Counted from the stretch's first letter, positions 1 through 18,781 are shown. The stretch is 23,248 nucleotides of DNA from a virus (IMGVR_UViG_2537562015_000009); one strand, 5' to 3'. Notes: generated by a model from the letters alone, not told the origin. Numbers and translations: made by a program.

Positions 1-1131
1 TCAAATGACCAGTTTTTTCCACTCCTTACCACGTGCATCGTTGTAAATATCGGTCATTTTTTGATTCGAATGGCCAAGCAAAATTTGGGTGTCGATCCCT
101 TGCTCCCTGAACAAACGCTCCGACAATGATCGCTGTTCATGGAAAGAGGGTGGGGTACCATTAGCGCACCAGTTGTAATCTACAGAGTCCCGCGCTTTTT
201 TAAATGCAACTGTTAACGTTGCTGGCTTAACCATCCCGCCGCGCTTGGCTGTCCCTTTCGCATGATGGTGGTGCAATAGCCACGGACTAAGAACGCAATC
301 GCGACAGGATGACGCCACATCATCCAGGGTGAGATTTAATTTATTGCAACGCAGAGCAAGAGGGATGGCAATCCGGGTTCCTGTTTTTTGCTGTTCGACA
401 TGAAGATAACCATCCCGGATATCCGAAAATTGCATTTTGCAAATATCTGAAAGGCGCTGGCCTGTCATCAGTGCCAGCAGCATGCCGCGCTGTAAAAAGT
501 AACCATCCTTTTCCGCTGCGTTATAAATCATCATCCACTCATCAAAAGTCAGTCGCTGCCTTGATATCCGCACCTGCGGTTTTTTTGCCGATTCTGCAGG
601 GTTAAAGCCTGGCGGAACATCGCCTGTTTGCTGGGCTTCCCGGAAAACATCGATCAGTACCTTCCTGAAAATTTGTCCCATTCTGTTATGTCCTCTGGCC
701 TTGTACTCTTCCAGCACCGATACCACATCTTTTACGGTTATGGCATCTAACGGTCTGGTGCCAAAACGTTCATCAAATACCCTGAGAGGGGCCGCTTTTT
801 GTTTCAGCGTGTTGAGTTTGATCTCTCCGTTTTCATATCTTTCCTGTTGAATTTTTCTGTAATTATTCAGAAAAATGGAAACGGTTGATGAACCGCCGGT
901 ATCATTAATAATTTTCTCCTGCAGACTGAGCATTTGTTTCATTTGCTGCCTGGCAAGACGGCTGTTCGCTTCTGCTGCAATAGTTTCTGCCAGTTTCTGG
1001 TCAATACTGCCGAGACCGTGATTTTTGCCTGTTATGGGATGCCTGTAACGCCAGTAAACTTTGTTATTTCTTTTGTCAAAATACGGAGATAATCCCGGAA
1101 CATCAGTTTTATATTTTCGCGGGCGCGCCAT
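1..1131 (-). CDS. int: Lambda-family tyrosine integrase
   Basis: 376 aa ORF, ATG at 1129-1131 with GGAAG/AGAGGA upstream; N-terminal arm-binding region resembling lambda Int (..YFDKRNNKVYWRYRHPITGKNHGLG..); C-terminus ..FHEQRSLSERLF..LLGHSNQKMTDIYNDARGKEW matches the catalytic R/H/Y region of lambda Int. Confidence 0.85.
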   Translation of the reverse strand: MARPRKYKTDVPGLSPYFDKRNNKVYWRYRHPITGKNHGLGSIDQKLAETIAAEANSRLARQQMKQMLSLQEKIINDTGGSSTVSIFLNNYRKIQQERYENGEIKLNTLKQKAAPLRVFDERFGTRPLDAITVKDVVSVLEEYKARGHNRMGQIFRKVLIDVFREAQQTGDVPPGFNPAESAKKPQVRISRQRLTFDEWMMIYNAAEKDGYFLQRGMLLALMTGQRLSDICKMQFSDIRDGYLHVEQQKTGTRIAIPLALRCNKLNLTLDDVASSCRDCVLSPWLLHHHHAKGTAKRGGMVKPATLTVAFKKARDSVDYNWCANGTPPSFHEQRSLSERLFREQGIDTQILLGHSNQKMTDIYNDARGKEWKKLVI

Positions 1132-4362: not shown

Positions 4363-4915
4363 TATCGCACCCTCAACAATGAATTTTGTGATGCGGTGCC
4401 TGGTGCCTCCAGGTGACGTTAACCAGTTAACAATTAACGCCGGATACAGAACCCCACCCATAACTTGGTTTTAACTGTTCCGCGTGCGCTTAGCCGCATT
4501 CACCGCATCACAAAATTCACTTTAAAAAGGACGGCAGAGCAGTCACGGAGTAAAACTGATACCGCCAAACGCCACCAGAAAATTGATAACAGAGGGCGTT
4601 GCAGCGGGGTTGTCACTTAAGCGCATGGTCAACCTGACAACCCGGTGTCTCAATGGGGGAGGAATAACCCCGCCATACTTACCGCCGCGCCATTTCGCGG
4701 AGTGCCACAACCGGAAGCGCACGGTCGACGAAAATTTAACGACAGGCTATCTATGAACCAACTACCTCGCCGTGCGCTTTCGCGTTATGCCCTGACTTTT
4801 CAGGAAAATGCCCTTTCAGTAAACTGTCAGTGCCGGATGCTCACCCGTGTCCGGCGCACGCACTCCACCTCACCCGTGGAGAACCCCTTAATTACCAACC
4901 CTCAGGAGGGTGAAA

Positions 4916-5136: not shown

Positions 5137-5500
5137 TCGAAATTTCATGGCTAACTGTAACCCTCCCATCTGTGGCGGGATGGTTTAAATCGCTGGGATT
5201 AATGCCGCACTCAGTAAAATGGTTCTTAAGGGGTTCTATCCGAATCCCTTTCTTTTTCATTAACAAGCCAAACCCCTTATCAATGATATCCATTAATTCC
5301 AGGAAGTATTTTTCATGTAAATCCTGGCTATCAGAGAGCCGCTTCTCTTCGTACAGACCGATAAAGGCACGACGCACGTTACCGGATATAGTATCGATGG
5401 TTTCTTTTTCTACGGTACTCAGGTCAAGAGTCGCCAGTTGGAAACGAACTATATTCGCTGCCATTTCCTGGAATTGCATTGGTAAATCTTTAAATTCCAT
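5126..5500 (-). CDS. Hypothetical protein (124 aa), early-left operon
   Basis: ATG 5498-5500 with GAGG 7 nt upstream; AT-rich; no motif recognised. Confidence 0.6.
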   Translation of the reverse strand: MEFKDLPMQFQEMAANIVRFQLATLDLSTVEKETIDTISGNVRRAFIGLYEEKRLSDSQDLHEKYFLELMDIIDKGFGLLMKKKGIRIEPLKNHFTECGINPSDLNHPATDGRVTVSHEISINH

Positions 5501-5522
5501 TATTAGCCTCGTTGGTTAGCTA

Positions 5523-5741
5523 TTAACGTGGGTATGTAATCATTCTGGCAATGCTTAATGCCGCTGCTTTTTCCAGCCTGGTGATATCCTGCTCCAGAGC
5601 GGACAGATTTTCAGCCTGCTTAGCCCTGGCTTCATTGGCCCATTTCAGATCCTGCGCTGCATTAATTTTCTGGCGCATCCACTCATAAAGTTCATCATCG
5701 GTATAGTCTGGCGCGATGATGACGGGTTCTCGTTTCTGCAT
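5523..5741 (-). CDS. Hypothetical protein (72 aa), first gene of early-left operon
   Basis: ATG 5739-5741 with GAGGA RBS (6 nt spacing); roughly 200 nt leader back to the pL-like promoter; no Arg-rich N-like motif. Confidence 0.6.
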   Translation of the reverse strand: MQKREPVIIAPDYTDDELYEWMRQKINAAQDLKWANEARAKQAENLSALEQDITRLEKAAALSIARMITYPR

Positions 5742-5932
5742 ACTGATTCCTCGCGGTGCTGTTTCCCCTTAACGCCGGGGTGGCGGAACAAAAACCTGCT
5801 GCATAGTTATTAAAGTTGAACCCTGCCGTCATGTTCTTACGCCTCGGGCTGGCTACTTACCCCCTGACCACTGCCTGGTAACTCGAAGTATTGCCCTGCA
5901 TTCTGTGGGGCGGGGTGGGTTGGTATGTTGTT

Positions 5933-5961
5933 AAGGTAACAAGTGTTACCTTTCGAGTCAA
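5933..5961 (-). promoter_or_regulatory. pL-like leftward promoter overlapping operator palindrome GGTAACAAGTGTTACC (5935-5950)
   Basis: Minus strand -35 TTGACT (5956-5961), 17 nt spacer, -10 TACCTT (5933-5938); perfect 16 bp palindrome GGTAAC-N4-GTTACC in the spacer; same half-sites as the two sites at the cI/cro junction. Confidence 0.45.
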
Positions 5962-5995
5962 TGCAATGTTGCAAAAAGTACATTTGAGGGCGTGA

Positions 5996-6019
5996 AAAAC
6001 CCGCAATGAATGCGGGTTA
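5996..6019 (-). terminator. Intrinsic terminator after repressor gene
   Basis: Minus strand reads CCCGCA-TTCATT-GCGGG followed by TTTTT, 5 nt downstream of the cI-like stop. Confidence 0.5.
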
Positions 6020-6023
6020 TGAC

Positions 6024-6698
6024 TCAGTCTAAGTATTGATGTATTTGTGAAACTTTACCTTTAATGGTGTAACCACCATTCAGTTCGATGGGTTTGTAAA
6101 GCGGATTCAGTGACAACAGATAGATGTTTGGTCCGTCAATCGCAACTTTTTTTAGTGTTACGTTTGGCGTTCCTTCCAATTGGATTAAGATTATTTTTCC
6201 CACCAGTTCTCTAATGTTACTTGAGCATGGTGTGATCAGCACGGTAGATCCGTCGGGGATGGTTGGGAGGCCGTTAGAGTTTGTCATCGCATCTCCCTCA
6301 ACATGCAATAAAAAAGAGTTTTCAGCGGTTTTTGTCATGACATCAACCCAATTCTTAATACCAGGAATCTCGGTTACTGGACAACTCATATCCCAATAAC
6401 CAGCCTGTTCCCACGTTAAAACGGGCAACCGGGCGATGTTGTCACTAATGTAAAGGTACTGATTCAGACGCAGATCATCGGTTTTATCGTGACCGTCCTT
6501 TCCATAAAGAATCCATTCAGGAGATTTGGAAAGCAATTTTGACAGTAGATGCAAATTCTCACCGTCAGGTTTTGAAGAGCCATTTTCCCATTTTGTTACG
6601 GATACACGAGATATGCCGATTGCTTTCGCAACCTGCTGTTGGGTTAATCCAACGTCTTTTCGACGATTCCGAATACGTTCGCTGATAGTGTTTTTCAT
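6024..6698 (-). CDS. P22 C2/lambda CI-like repressor (N-terminal HTH, C-terminal S24 LexA-like peptidase domain); catalytic Ser replaced by Ala
   Basis: N-terminus from ATG 6696-6698 (MKNTISERIRNRRK..) parallels P22 C2 (MNTQLMGERIRARRK..); Ala-Gly cleavage site present (..WEQAGYWDM..); S24 motif reads GDAM (Ala codon GCG at 6288-6290) instead of GDSM; Lys of the dyad present (TLKKV); the track ORF extends to a TTG at 6797. Confidence 0.8.
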   Translation of the reverse strand: MKNTISERIRNRRKDVGLTQQQVAKAIGISRVSVTKWENGSSKPDGENLHLLSKLLSKSPEWILYGKDGHDKTDDLRLNQYLYISDNIARLPVLTWEQAGYWDMSCPVTEIPGIKNWVDVMTKTAENSFLLHVEGDAMTNSNGLPTIPDGSTVLITPCSSNIRELVGKIILIQLEGTPNVTLKKVAIDGPNIYLLSLNPLYKPIELNGGYTIKGKVSQIHQYLD

Positions 6699-6760
6699 GT
6701 AACCAATGTTACTACCAAGTGATGTTGCTATGGTTGACATTGTAATGTAACTATTGTTAC
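6699..6760. promoter_or_regulatory. Immunity switch region: two operator palindromes GTAAC-N4-GTTAC (6699-6712, 6747-6760) with divergent promoter elements
   Basis: GTAACCAATGTTAC abuts the cI start codon; GTAACTATTGTTAC lies between plus-strand TTGACA (6734-6739) and the cro RBS; candidate leaderless PRM -10 TAACAT inside the first operator. Confidence 0.45.
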
Positions 6761-6789
6761 CCTCCTGCTCGAAATAACAGGAGAGTTTT

Positions 6790-7005
6790 ATGTTCAAAGA
6801 TGATGTTCTGCGCTATTTCAAAAAAAAGCGACTAGTAGCTGAGGCTCTTGGAATTTCACATGTGGCTGTTGTGCGGTGGAAAGCAGTTATTCCCAAACTT
6901 CGCGCAATGGAACTGGATGAAATTACTAACGGTGAATTGAAATACAACCCAGAACTTTACAAGAAGCAGGATAGCACCTCGAACGAAGGAAAGAATGATT
7001 CATGA
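6790..7005 (+). CDS. Cro-like HTH regulator (YdaS-like)
   Basis: 71 aa, ATG 6790 with GGAGAG RBS; divergent from repressor; HTH-like ..AEALGISHVAVVRWK.. Confidence 0.7.
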   Translation: MFKDDVLRYFKKKRLVAEALGISHVAVVRWKAVIPKLRAMELDEITNGELKYNPELYKKQDSTSNEGKNDS

Positions 7006-7427
7006 AAATCAAGCATGAACACATCCGCATGGCGATGAATGCCTGGGCGCGTCCTGATGGCGAAAAAGTTCCAGCAGCTGGAATAACCCAGGCTTATTTT
7101 GAGTTGGGTATGACGTTCCCAGAACTGTATGACGACAGCCATCCGGAAGCCCTGGCTCGTAATACCCAGAAAATTTTCCGCTGGGTAGAGAAAGACACCC
7201 CTGATGCAGTTGAAAAAATTCAGGCGTTGTTACCAGCGATCGAAAAGGCAATGCCACCTTTGCTGGTGGCCAGAATGCGCAGCCACAGTTCAGCTTATTT
7301 TCGGGAGCTGGTGGAGACGCGGGAACGACTGGTGAGAGACGCTGATGATTTTGTCGCAGTGGCGATCGCTGGTTTCAATCAGATGAATCGTGGTGGCCCG
7401 GCAGGAAATGCCTTGGTGATGCACTAA
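7002..7427 (+). CDS. YdaT-like / CII-position regulatory protein
   Basis: 141 aa, ATG overlaps cro stop, AAGGAAAG RBS; N-terminus MKIKHEHI.. and position after the Cro-like gene resemble Rac YdaT (from memory, not verified). Confidence 0.5.
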   Translation: MKIKHEHIRMAMNAWARPDGEKVPAAGITQAYFELGMTFPELYDDSHPEALARNTQKIFRWVEKDTPDAVEKIQALLPAIEKAMPPLLVARMRSHSSAYFRELVETRERLVRDADDFVAVAIAGFNQMNRGGPAGNALVMH

Positions 7428-17372: not shown

Positions 17373-18422
17373 ATGACTAATACTGTAAAAATATCCAGTT
17401 GTGAGTTGATCAACGCTGATTGCCTGAAATTTATCCAGACCTTACCGGAAAACTCTGTCGATCTGATAGTCACAGACCCGCCATACTTTAAAGTGAAGCC
17501 CGAGGGCTGGGATAACCAGTGGGAGGGCGACGATGATTACCTGAAATGGCTGGACCAGTGTCTGGCGCAGTTCTGGCGGGTACTGAAGCCTGCCGGAAGT
17601 CTTTACCTGTTCTGTGGTCATCGCCTGGCATCTGACACCGAAATCATGATGCGTGAGCGCTTTAATGTGCTGAACCACATTATCTGGGCGAAGCCGTCCG
17701 GACGCTGGAACGGGTGCAATAAGGAAAGTCTGCGGGCGTATTTTCCGGCAACAGAGCGCATTCTGTTTGCAGAACATTATCAGGGACCGTATCGCCCGAA
17801 AGATGATGGCTATGTGGCACAGGGGCGCGAGCTAAAACAGCACGTCATGGCCCCGCTGATTTCTTACTTTCGTGATGCGCGTAAATCACTGGGAATAACG
17901 TCAAAACAGATAGCGGAAGCCACCGGAAAGAAAAACATGGCTTCGCACTGGTTTGGTACCAGTCAGTGGCAGTTACCGAACGAGGGTGATTACAACAAAT
18001 TGCAGGCGTTGTTTGCGCGTGTTGCGGCAGAAAAACATCAGCGCGGGGAACTGGAAAAACCACACCACCAGCTGGTCAGCACATACAGTGAGCTGAACCG
18101 GCAGTATACGGAATTGCTGAGTGAATATAAAAATTTGCGGCGGTATTTCGGTGTGACGGCGCAGGTTCCGTACACCGATGTCTGGACGCATAAACCGGTG
18201 CAGTACTATCCAGGGAAACATCCGTGCGAAAAACCGGCAGAAATGCTGCAGCAGATAATCAACGCGAGCAGTCGTCCGGGAGACCTGGTTGCAGATTTTT
18301 TTATGGGTTCAGGTTCAACGGTAAAAGCGGCGATGGCACTGGGGCGTTGTGCGATTGGTGTTGAGCTGGAGACAGGACGTTTTGAACAGACAGTCAGGGA
18401 AGTTCAGGATTTAATCGTTTGA
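17373..18422 (+). CDS. Orphan DNA methyltransferase (beta-class N6-adenine or N4-cytosine)
   Basis: Motif IV DLIVTDPPYF near the N-terminus and motif I FFMGSGST near the C-terminus; no adjacent restriction endonuclease. Confidence 0.85.
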   Translation: MTNTVKISSCELINADCLKFIQTLPENSVDLIVTDPPYFKVKPEGWDNQWEGDDDYLKWLDQCLAQFWRVLKPAGSLYLFCGHRLASDTEIMMRERFNVLNHIIWAKPSGRWNGCNKESLRAYFPATERILFAEHYQGPYRPKDDGYVAQGRELKQHVMAPLISYFRDARKSLGITSKQIAEATGKKNMASHWFGTSQWQLPNEGDYNKLQALFARVAAEKHQRGELEKPHHQLVSTYSELNRQYTELLSEYKNLRRYFGVTAQVPYTDVWTHKPVQYYPGKHPCEKPAEMLQQIINASSRPGDLVADFFMGSGSTVKAAMALGRCAIGVELETGRFEQTVREVQDLIV

Positions 18423-18471: not shown

Positions 18472-18547
18472 GGCCCTTTAGCTCAGTGGTGAGAGCGAGC
18501 GACTCATAATCGCCAGGTCGCTGGTTCAAATCCAGCAAGGGCCACCA
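18472..18547 (+). tRNA. tRNA with CAT anticodon, IleX-like (tRNA-Ile2; formally Met/Ile CAU)
   Basis: Cloverleaf with acceptor GGCCCTT/AAGGGCC, anticodon loop CTCATAA (CAT at 18505-18507), 3' CCA; near-identical to E. coli ileX from memory. Confidence 0.8.
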
Positions 18548-18548
18548 A

Positions 18549-18625
18549 CCGTCACCAGTTCATCAGGAAAGAGCGTCAACCCTTTAAGTTGAGTGTGCGA
18601 GGTTCGAGTCCTCGGTGGCGGGCCA
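18549..18625 (+). tRNA. tRNA-like gene with atypical anticodon loop (CCTTTAA; C at position 33), identity uncertain, possibly pseudo-tRNA
   Basis: Acceptor CCGTCAC/GTGGCGG (one G-U), T-arm CGAGG-TTCGAGT-CCTCG, 3' CCA; anticodon stem TCAAC/GTTGA; loop lacks the conserved U33. Confidence 0.5.
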
Positions 18626-18627
18626 GT

Positions 18628-18703
<76 letters not shown>

Positions 18704-18706
18704 TAT

Positions 18707-18781
<75 letters not shown>

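Follow-up and report, generated by a model that had tools for sequence, protein, structure and literature searches.

The window analyzed here is the whole 23,248-nucleotide stretch of the viral sequence IMGVR_UViG_2537562015_000009, a lambdoid prophage at ompW in Escherichia coli to which several genomes are 100% identical over the query. Three palindromes of the form GTAAC-N4-GTTAC are located around its repressor gene and are very probably operators for the repressor and for Cro, acting as the right operators OR1 and OR3 and the left operator OL1 of a P22-type switch. The region is interpreted as the P22-type immunity region of a defective lambdoid E. coli prophage; the kind of switch is well known, and this one was previously undescribed. 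It makes no conceptual addition to the lambda/P22 paradigm. An operator consensus and a promoter layout are now provided for a module that ~13% of complete E. coli genomes carry and that also occurs in many other genera, the annotated start of the repressor is corrected, and the regulation of the module becomes testable through the silenced genes (DicF, DicB, and the Hok/Sok neighbors) and through cross-immunity to phages ZF40 and vB_EcoS-733R5.

Three Palindromes around the Repressor Gene

The exact sequence GTAAC-N4-GTTAC occurs in the window as GTAACAAGTGTTAC at 5936-5949, GTAACCAATGTTAC at 6699-6712, and GTAACTATTGTTAC at 6747-6760, all within 825 bp, and no further exact site was found in the window. 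A frequency of 0.023 sites per window (~5 per 5 Mb) is expected from base composition, and no exact site appeared in 100 dinucleotide-preserving shuffles of the window. The three sites named in the original prediction were thereby recovered. When up to two mismatches were allowed, 15 matches were observed versus 6.9 expected; these are mostly background, so that only the three perfect sites stand out. One detail requires correction. The sequence GGTAACAAGTGTTACC at 5935-5950 had been described as a perfect 16-bp palindrome; its arms, GGTAACA and TGTTACC, are perfect 7-mers, but the central AG is not self-complementary.

The gene at 6024-6698 (minus strand) encodes a CI-like repressor of 224 amino acids with the Pfam domains HTH_3 and Peptidase_S24, and the gene at 6790-7005 (plus strand) encodes a Cro-like lytic repressor of 71 amino acids (P22_Cro, PF14549, E = 2.9e-16) with GGAG positioned 6 nt before its ATG. 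By BLASTP the repressor is 36% identical to P22 C2 (E = 2e-43) and the Cro-like protein is 47% identical to P22 Cro (E = 1e-18). The repressor also aligns with lambda CI (E = 1e-13), and its best phage repressor match is only 43.5% identical. The positions claimed for the palindromes relative to these genes hold. Base 6699 adjoins the repressor ATG (6696-6698, minus strand), the site at 6747-6760 lies between TTGACA (6734-6739) and the GGAG of cro (6780-6783), and the 17-bp spacer of a leftward TTGACT/TACCTT promoter, together with part of its -10 element, is taken up by the site at 5936-5949.

Conservation of the Probable Operators

The region was compared with 24 relatives, which comprise 20 loci of other genera with repressors 42-53% identical to that of the window and four closer loci (89, 88, 70, and 66%). 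The distant loci belong to Arsenophonus, Yersinia, Chania, Buttiauxella, Mangrovibacter, Erwinia, Kluyvera, Rahnella, Phytobacter, Kosakonia, Edwardsiella, Klebsiella, Celerinatantimonas, and others. All 24 contain an OR3 site beside the repressor ATG that reads GTAACATT(G/A)GTTAC in the direction of the repressor gene, with one mismatch in loci L002 and L106. An OR1 site, GTAACAAAAGGTAC or GTAACAATAGTTAC, is found 48 bp further upstream in all 24. Relative to the repressor ATG the two sites occupy positions -14..-1 and -62..-49, respectively, in 22 of the 24 loci; both are offset by 6 nt in L002 and by 3 nt in L019. A middle site, CAAACAACAGTTAC, appears at -39..-26 in 13 of the 20 distant relatives. 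Beyond the repressor terminator, most relatives have two sites 31-35 bp apart around a TTGAC element. The sequence between the sites is little conserved. Whereas OR3 keeps ATTG or ATTA at its center, the other sites have freely varying centers. All members of the family share the recognition helix RVSVTKWE, even though repressor identity drops to 42%.

A weight matrix trained only on the sites of the relatives (consensus ATGTAAC-TATA-GTTACAT) was used to score the 23,231 positions of the window. The three exact sites took the first three ranks with 20-25 bits, and the next position scored 9.9 bits. The confinement of the motif was judged on 171 kb of related loci, on 18 kb of chromosomal flank, and against the composition-based expectation. 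Within the 171 kb, drawn from 26 loci, 79 of 81 exact sites fall inside the OR or OL windows, and the remaining two, both in L007 and separated by 33 bp, resemble a displaced OL. A scan of viral contigs that used the DNA pattern OR1-N34-OR3-ATG alone returned at least 120 matches; among the matches listed, all 53 distinct downstream proteins have a helix 3 of the form SR(V/A)(S/A)V(T/A)KWE. Half-site positions vary less than other non-coding positions among the close E. coli copies (3 of 30 versus 49 of 161; one-sided Fisher p = 0.014). The GTAAC-N4-GTTAC sites are also present in two isolated phages, Escherichia phage vB_EcoS-733R5 and Pectobacterium phage ZF40.

Palindromes that are short and AT-rich occur commonly, and the sites might in principle be functionless products of chance. 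The probability of this explanation is negligible, given three sites in 825 bp versus 0.023 expected in the window and the conservation of both position and sequence across genera; a chance origin is already refuted by the conservation data. The assignment of the sites to OL with the left promoter (PL) and to OR with the right promoter (PR) and the repressor maintenance promoter (PRM), as originally proposed, is backed by their positions in the 24 relatives, by the relatives-only matrix, by the confinement of the motif, and by agreement with the GenBank record of P22.

Probable Right Operator Region

OR1 (6747-6760) is the strongest predicted operator, with a matrix score of 24.9 bits (rank 1), and spans the spacer and the -10 element of the predicted PR. 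This promoter (6734-6763, plus strand) would consist of the -35 hexamer TTGACA at 6734-6739, an 18-bp spacer, and the TG-extended -10 element TGTTACCCT with the hexamer TACCCT at 6758-6763. The relatives keep AAGGTAAC, which corresponds to GTTACCTT on the cro strand. In both PR and PL the -10 element is the outer part of an operator half-site and is preceded by TGT, which makes it TG-extended.

OR3 (6699-6712), a strong predicted operator immediately before the repressor ATG, scored 20.4 bits (rank 3) and shows no variation among the close E. coli-type copies. The predicted -10 element of PRM, TAACAT at 6711-6706 on the minus strand, is located inside OR3 at -13..-8 from the repressor ATG. The two perfect sites of OR thus overlap the -10 elements of two divergent predicted promoters. 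The OR1-OR3 spacing in the window is 48 bp, as in P22 (23 + 25).

A degenerate site that may be OR2 is found between them at 6724-6737, where the minus strand reads TCAACCATAGCAAC. It lies 23 bp from OR1 and 25 bp from OR3, in the register of the CAAACAACAGTTAC site of the distant relatives and of OR2 in P22. It overlaps the -35 element of PR, and its left half doubles as that element.

Probable Left Operator Region

OL1 (5936-5949) is likewise a strong predicted operator (22.1 bits, rank 2) and spans the spacer and -10 element of the predicted PL. In the E. coli copies its variation is limited to the central 4 bp, apart from one mutated copy, and its homologue in the relatives is the site beyond the repressor terminator. 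PL (5933-5961, minus strand) would be formed by the -35 hexamer TTGACT at 5961-5956, a 17-bp spacer, and the TG-extended -10 element TGTTACCTT with the hexamer TACCTT at 5938-5933. The TTGAC sequence and the -10 element derived from the half-site are kept in the relatives, and the build is the same as that of PL/OL1 in P22.

The segment at 5968-5981, which reads GTACTTTTTGCAAC on the minus strand, is probably OL2. It is degenerate (6.2 bits, rank 6) and is located 32 bp from OL1, upstream of the PL -35 element, so that OL1 and OL2 stand just past the repressor terminator on either side of TTGACT. Its position is homologous to that of the second downstream site of the relatives, 31-35 bp from OL1, and in most E. 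coli copies this position reads GTACCTTTTGCAAC. The degenerate OL2-like and OR2-like sites were overlooked in the original prediction.

The intrinsic terminator of the repressor gene (5993-6018, minus strand) consists of an 8-bp hairpin, AACCCGCA-UUCAU-UGCGGGUU, followed by a U run. The calculated fold energy is -14.1 kcal/mol (z = -3.78 versus shuffles). In most relatives an equivalent hairpin with a T run separates the repressor stop codon from the OL sites.

The leader of the PL transcript (~5790-5925, minus strand) contains the conserved block TAAGTAGCCAGCCYGAGGCRYAWGAACATGAMGGCA. In the distant relatives the leader forms a ~62-nt structure with a closing stem, two hairpins, and three covarying pairs. 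No Rfam match to the block, no second copy in the window, and no N gene downstream were found. An identification with the put RNA of HK022 was rejected, given the absence of similarity to the PL-nun region of HK022, the absence of an Rfam match, and the presence of one copy only. The block may be an antiterminator resembling put or a leader element of another sort.

Proposed Mechanism of Regulation

In the proposed mechanism, dimers of the 224-residue repressor would bind the 18-bp sequence ATGTAAC-N4-GTTACAT by means of a P22-C2-like helix-turn-helix motif in which helix 3 is SRVSVTKWE. Occupancy of OR1 would mask the TG-extended -10 element of PR and turn off cro, ydaT, and the replication genes. 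Occupancy of OL1 would mask PL and keep the leftward operon (ydfC, DicF RNA, dicB, exonuclease, xis, and int) silent. Occupancy of OR3 would mask the -10 element TAACAT and the start point of the repressor promoter, giving negative autoregulation. The degenerate OR2 and OL2 sites may be filled cooperatively, and the P22-type Cro would be expected on the same sites in lytic growth. The repressor transcript made from PRM would have a leader of 0-2 nt. Binding itself, the sequence in which the sites fill, cooperative filling, activation of PRM, and the start points of transcription are inferred; confidence is lower for OR2, cooperativity, and PRM activation.

Four observations weigh against parts of this scheme. 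The OR2 site scored -4.3 bits (rank 45), which makes a three-site OR insecure in this prophage. OR2 would be centered ~32 bp before the repressor start and would thus lie over the PRM -35 element; PRM activation is uncertain because OR2 overlaps this element rather than lying beside it as in lambda. The OL1-OL2 spacing varies among the relatives (31-35 bp), which is awkward for strict helical phasing. Finally, a consensus promoter scan of 5500-7100 gave no sigma-70 promoter, and the repressor terminator was missed as well. PR and PL escape such a scan because their -10 hexamers, TACCCT and TACCTT, match only 3 of 6 positions. Both promoters are predictions read from the sequence and argued from conservation and the parallel with P22, and the terminator is argued from its folding.

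As an alternative, the main ligand of the palindromes could be a protein other than the S24-type repressor, for example Cro alone, YdaT/CII, or a factor from the host. Cro would be expected to use these operators as well, and YdaT proteins bind inverted repeats according to PMC9986795. The YdaT site given there, TTGATT-N6-AATCAA, is unrelated to the motif, however, and the sites occupy the positions at which the P22 record annotates the C2 repressor operators. The motif also follows the recognition helix of the repressor even where the C-terminal domain has been replaced (loci L135, L154, L170, and L159, described below). Another principal ligand is very unlikely, and the repressor is retained as the protein that would act at these sites.

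Start of the Repressor Gene

In the RefSeq annotation from the Prokaryotic Genome Annotation Pipeline (PGAP), the repressor starts at ATG 6740, has 238 amino acids, and is read through OR2 and OR3. If this were correct, 6699-6712 could be conserved as coding sequence for an N-terminal extension (...SNIGY), and the protein would begin MSTIATSLGSNIGYMKN.... Database entries for the homologues with 66-89% identity likewise include an extension with N-I/L-G/N-Y. The in-frame codon at -42, which corresponds to 6740, is TAG in 13 of the 24 relatives and another non-start codon in 4 more. Homologues are mostly 215-221 amino acids long and begin at the invariant Met of MK(T/N). The NIGY sequence at some database N-termini is the translation of the operator AACATTGGTTAC, a palindrome also present at the non-coding OR1 and OL1. 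A start at 6740 would sit within the -35 element of PR and leave no space for a promoter. Conservation of the site as coding sequence is most improbable on these grounds; the repressor probably starts at ATG 6698 and has 224 amino acids, and the 238-residue RefSeq start is probably wrong. A similar over-extension is seen in database entries and in the annotation of ZF40 cI (L112, 1099).

A Probably Leaderless Repressor mRNA

The maintenance mRNA of the repressor is likely to be effectively leaderless, with 0-2 nt before the ATG, judging from the sequence layout and the analogy with P22. A properly placed Shine-Dalgarno sequence was not found before the repressor ATG in any relative. In the cro genes a GGAG-type Shine-Dalgarno sequence is located 5-9 nt upstream of the start in 24 of 25 cases (24 being those with a start found by the script). 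The TAACAT hexamer in OR3 is kept in 22 of the 24 relatives, and the conservation of the OR3 center, in contrast to the free variation of the others, is what a -10 hexamer at this position would require. In the P22 record the 5' end of the PRM transcript lies 4 nt upstream of the c2 ATG, in a homologous layout, and by register with P22 the start in the window would be A6700 or A6698. The mRNA of the PaaR2 repressor encoded by the cryptic CP-933P prophage, which likewise has ydaS-ydaT neighbors, was found to be leaderless by rapid amplification of 5' cDNA ends, and lambda cI mRNA is cited as leaderless in the same work (PMC8630535).

Alternatively, the operators may be real and the repressor mRNA leadered, with a start within or beyond OR1, or only from a PRE-like (repressor establishment) promoter, and with translation that does not use a Shine-Dalgarno sequence. 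The predicted PRM is weak, with a -10 element that matches 4 of 6 positions and a poor -35 element, and 3 extra nt separate the operator from the ATG in L019. Set against the retention of TAACAT, the P22 transcript end, and the PaaR2 mRNA, a leadered transcript is considered unlikely, and a leaderless mRNA is preferred.

Comparison with Known Systems

In the P22 GenBank record, OR1-OR3 are annotated from the base beside the c2 ATG, with PR, PRM, and PL over the operators. As read from the P22 sequence, the operators are 18 bp long (ATTTAAG-N4-CTTAAAT), the center-to-center spacings in OR are 23 and 25 bp, the PRM -10 element TAAGAT lies in OR3, and the PL -10 element TAAATT comes from the outer half of OL1. 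The window resembles P22 in its 18-bp operators with 4-bp centers, in the 23/25-bp registers of OR if the tentative OR2 is counted, and in an OR3 that abuts the repressor ATG. The PRM -10 elements of the two (TAACAT in the window and TAAGAT in P22) are positionally homologous inside OR3, and those of PR and PL are made from the outer halves of OR1 and OL1. OL1 and OL2 flank the -35 element and are 35 bp apart in P22, 32 bp in the window, and 34-35 bp in the distant relatives.

The two systems differ in the half-site, ATGTAAC in the window and ATTTAAG in P22 (2 of 7 positions), and in the recognition helix, SRVSVTKWE versus SNVAISQWE (N32R, A34S, I35V, S36T, and Q37K in P22 numbering). The operator array of the window is 2 bp nearer to the repressor ATG, its OR2 and OL2 are degenerate, and there is no OL3. 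The cro gene is followed by ydaT-type genes in the window and by c1 in P22, and the window repressor has Ala in place of the catalytic Ser.

Like the window, lambda has divergent repressor and cro genes, a repressor of the S24 type, and palindromic operators that recur over PR, PRM, and PL. The operator sequence of lambda is unrelated. The lambda operators are 17 bp long, the start points of PR and PRM are ~82 bp apart, and OR2 lies beside the PRM -35 element; the PR and PRM starts predicted in the window are ~72 bp apart.

The Qin prophage provides a parallel for the leftward operon, since that of the window contains ydfC, DicF RNA, and dicB. In Qin the expression of dicF-dicB is controlled by DicA/DicC, and cell-division inhibitors are silenced by the prophage repressor. 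The repressor of the window differs in being an S24 CI homologue with different operators; DicA is not known to have an S24 domain.

CP-933P of E. coli O157:H7 (PaaR2, YdaS, and YdaT) is also a cryptic lambdoid prophage in which a cro-like gene precedes ydaT (PMC8630535 and PMC9986795). Its intergenic region of ~90-97 bp contains repeated palindromes over PR and PRM, with a copy at OL/PL (PMC8630535). PaaR2 differs in not being of the S24 type and in its operator consensus, which is based on GTTTAGTAA in four 18-bp repeats (PMC8630535). CP-933P also carries a toxin-antitoxin cargo that is absent from the window.

The OL of HK022 (L234 ~745-790, minus strand, between cI and nun) contains atGTACTATTGGTACtt and atGAACTTTAAGTACat. 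Their half-sites are of the GTAC type, are flanked by ATG/CAT, and are similar to the GTAAC...GGTAC sites of the distant relatives. The core of the HK022 sites is 13 bp rather than 14 bp, and the helix-turn-helix motif reads TPKAISKWF. Phage mEp390 (L111) was rejected as a family member: its layout is equal, and its site is GTAGG-N4-CCTAC. The sequence before its repressor ATG at 1195 is GTAGGATTGCCTAC, directly followed by the ATG. mEp390 looks like a sister specificity of similar layout.

Immunity Specificity

In the original prediction the motif defines the likely immunity specificity of the prophage. The motif is not particular to this prophage, being common to repressors of a very broad family in which the recognition helix is invariant. 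The specificity is also not that of P22, from which both the half-site and the recognition helix of the window differ.

The GTAAC-type core and the recognition helix were also found with short repressors of 128-146 amino acids that lack the S24 domain (L135, L154, and L170), and the operator layout and a near-identical helix occur in L159 with an S24 repressor that is only 26% identical; all four are contigs from IMG/VR. These sequences suggest that the operators travel with the DNA-binding domain as one module. In the distant relatives GGTAC is favored in one half-site, and the flanks and centers differ.

As a tentative proposal, which is less likely than not, the helix SRVSVTKWE and the operator ATGTAAC-N4-GTTACAT may constitute one very widespread immunity specificity that extends across repressors less than 45% identical and with differing C-terminal domains. 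The E. coli version would possibly be domesticated and blind to the SOS response, permanently silencing dicF/dicB and protecting the host against superinfection by any phage of this operator type. If one specificity is shared in this way, cross-immunity would link many prophages, in Enterobacterales and beyond, that are otherwise unrelated.

Loss of the Catalytic Serine and Prophage Context

Self-cleavage of LexA and lambda CI depends on a catalytic Ser. The residue of the window repressor that aligns with Ser149 of lambda CI is Ala137 (GDAMTN; codon GCG at 6288-6290, minus strand). The Ala-Gly cleavage site (QAG) and the Lys are kept, so that the combination of a Ser-Lys dyad with Ala-Gly, by which RecA-inducible S24 repressors are recognized, is incomplete in this protein. 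Of 87 close copies, 84 have Ala at the Ser149 position. Among the four closer relatives, the 89% and 70% loci also have Ala and the 88% and 66% loci have Ser, as do all of the distant relatives. From what is known of LexA and lambda CI, a repressor with Ala137 would not be expected to cleave itself and should not be RecA-inducible, and the module would have no SOS response.

A LexA-controlled antirepressor that would explain the Ser-to-Ala change was considered and rejected; the only LexA-like box, a weak one, lies in a methyltransferase gene, and no antirepressor is annotated. This box, TACTGTAAAAATATCCAGTT at 17381-17400, has 2 mismatches and is located 8 nt inside the annotated start of the DNA methyltransferase gene. 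It is probably due to chance (0.47 expected, 2 found).

The immunity module is present in 702 of 5,426 complete E. coli genomes. A megablast search of 50,697 phage genomes did not detect the immunity region at the DNA level, as only the flanks of the query were matched. A literature search for the motif, the exact operator 14-mers, and the ZF40 operators returned nothing relevant, and none of the 14-mers was found in the literature searched. A non-inducible repressor fits a remnant prophage and the absence of the module from isolated phages.

The ~25-kb remnant at ompW in NZ_CP024232 (4794721-4819567) contains, in order, int, xis, exonuclease, dicB, ydfC, repressor, cro, ydaT, replication genes, hokD, doc, rusA, and Q; genes for a head or a tail shaft were not found in this element. 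Q is followed by a Ser/Thr kinase and PP2C phosphatase pair, a methyltransferase, and three tRNAs, and the element ends with a holin and a tail tip that are both truncated, tail-fibre genes, and part of ompW. In the window, the YdaT-family protein (Pfam) is encoded at 7002-7427, and the DicF antisense RNA is located at 4529-4580 (minus strand) within the PL operon. The sok antitoxin RNA is found beside hokD at 11435-11610 (plus strand), and the three tRNA genes (Ile, Lys, and Gly in RefSeq) are located downstream of Q at 18472-18778 (plus strand).

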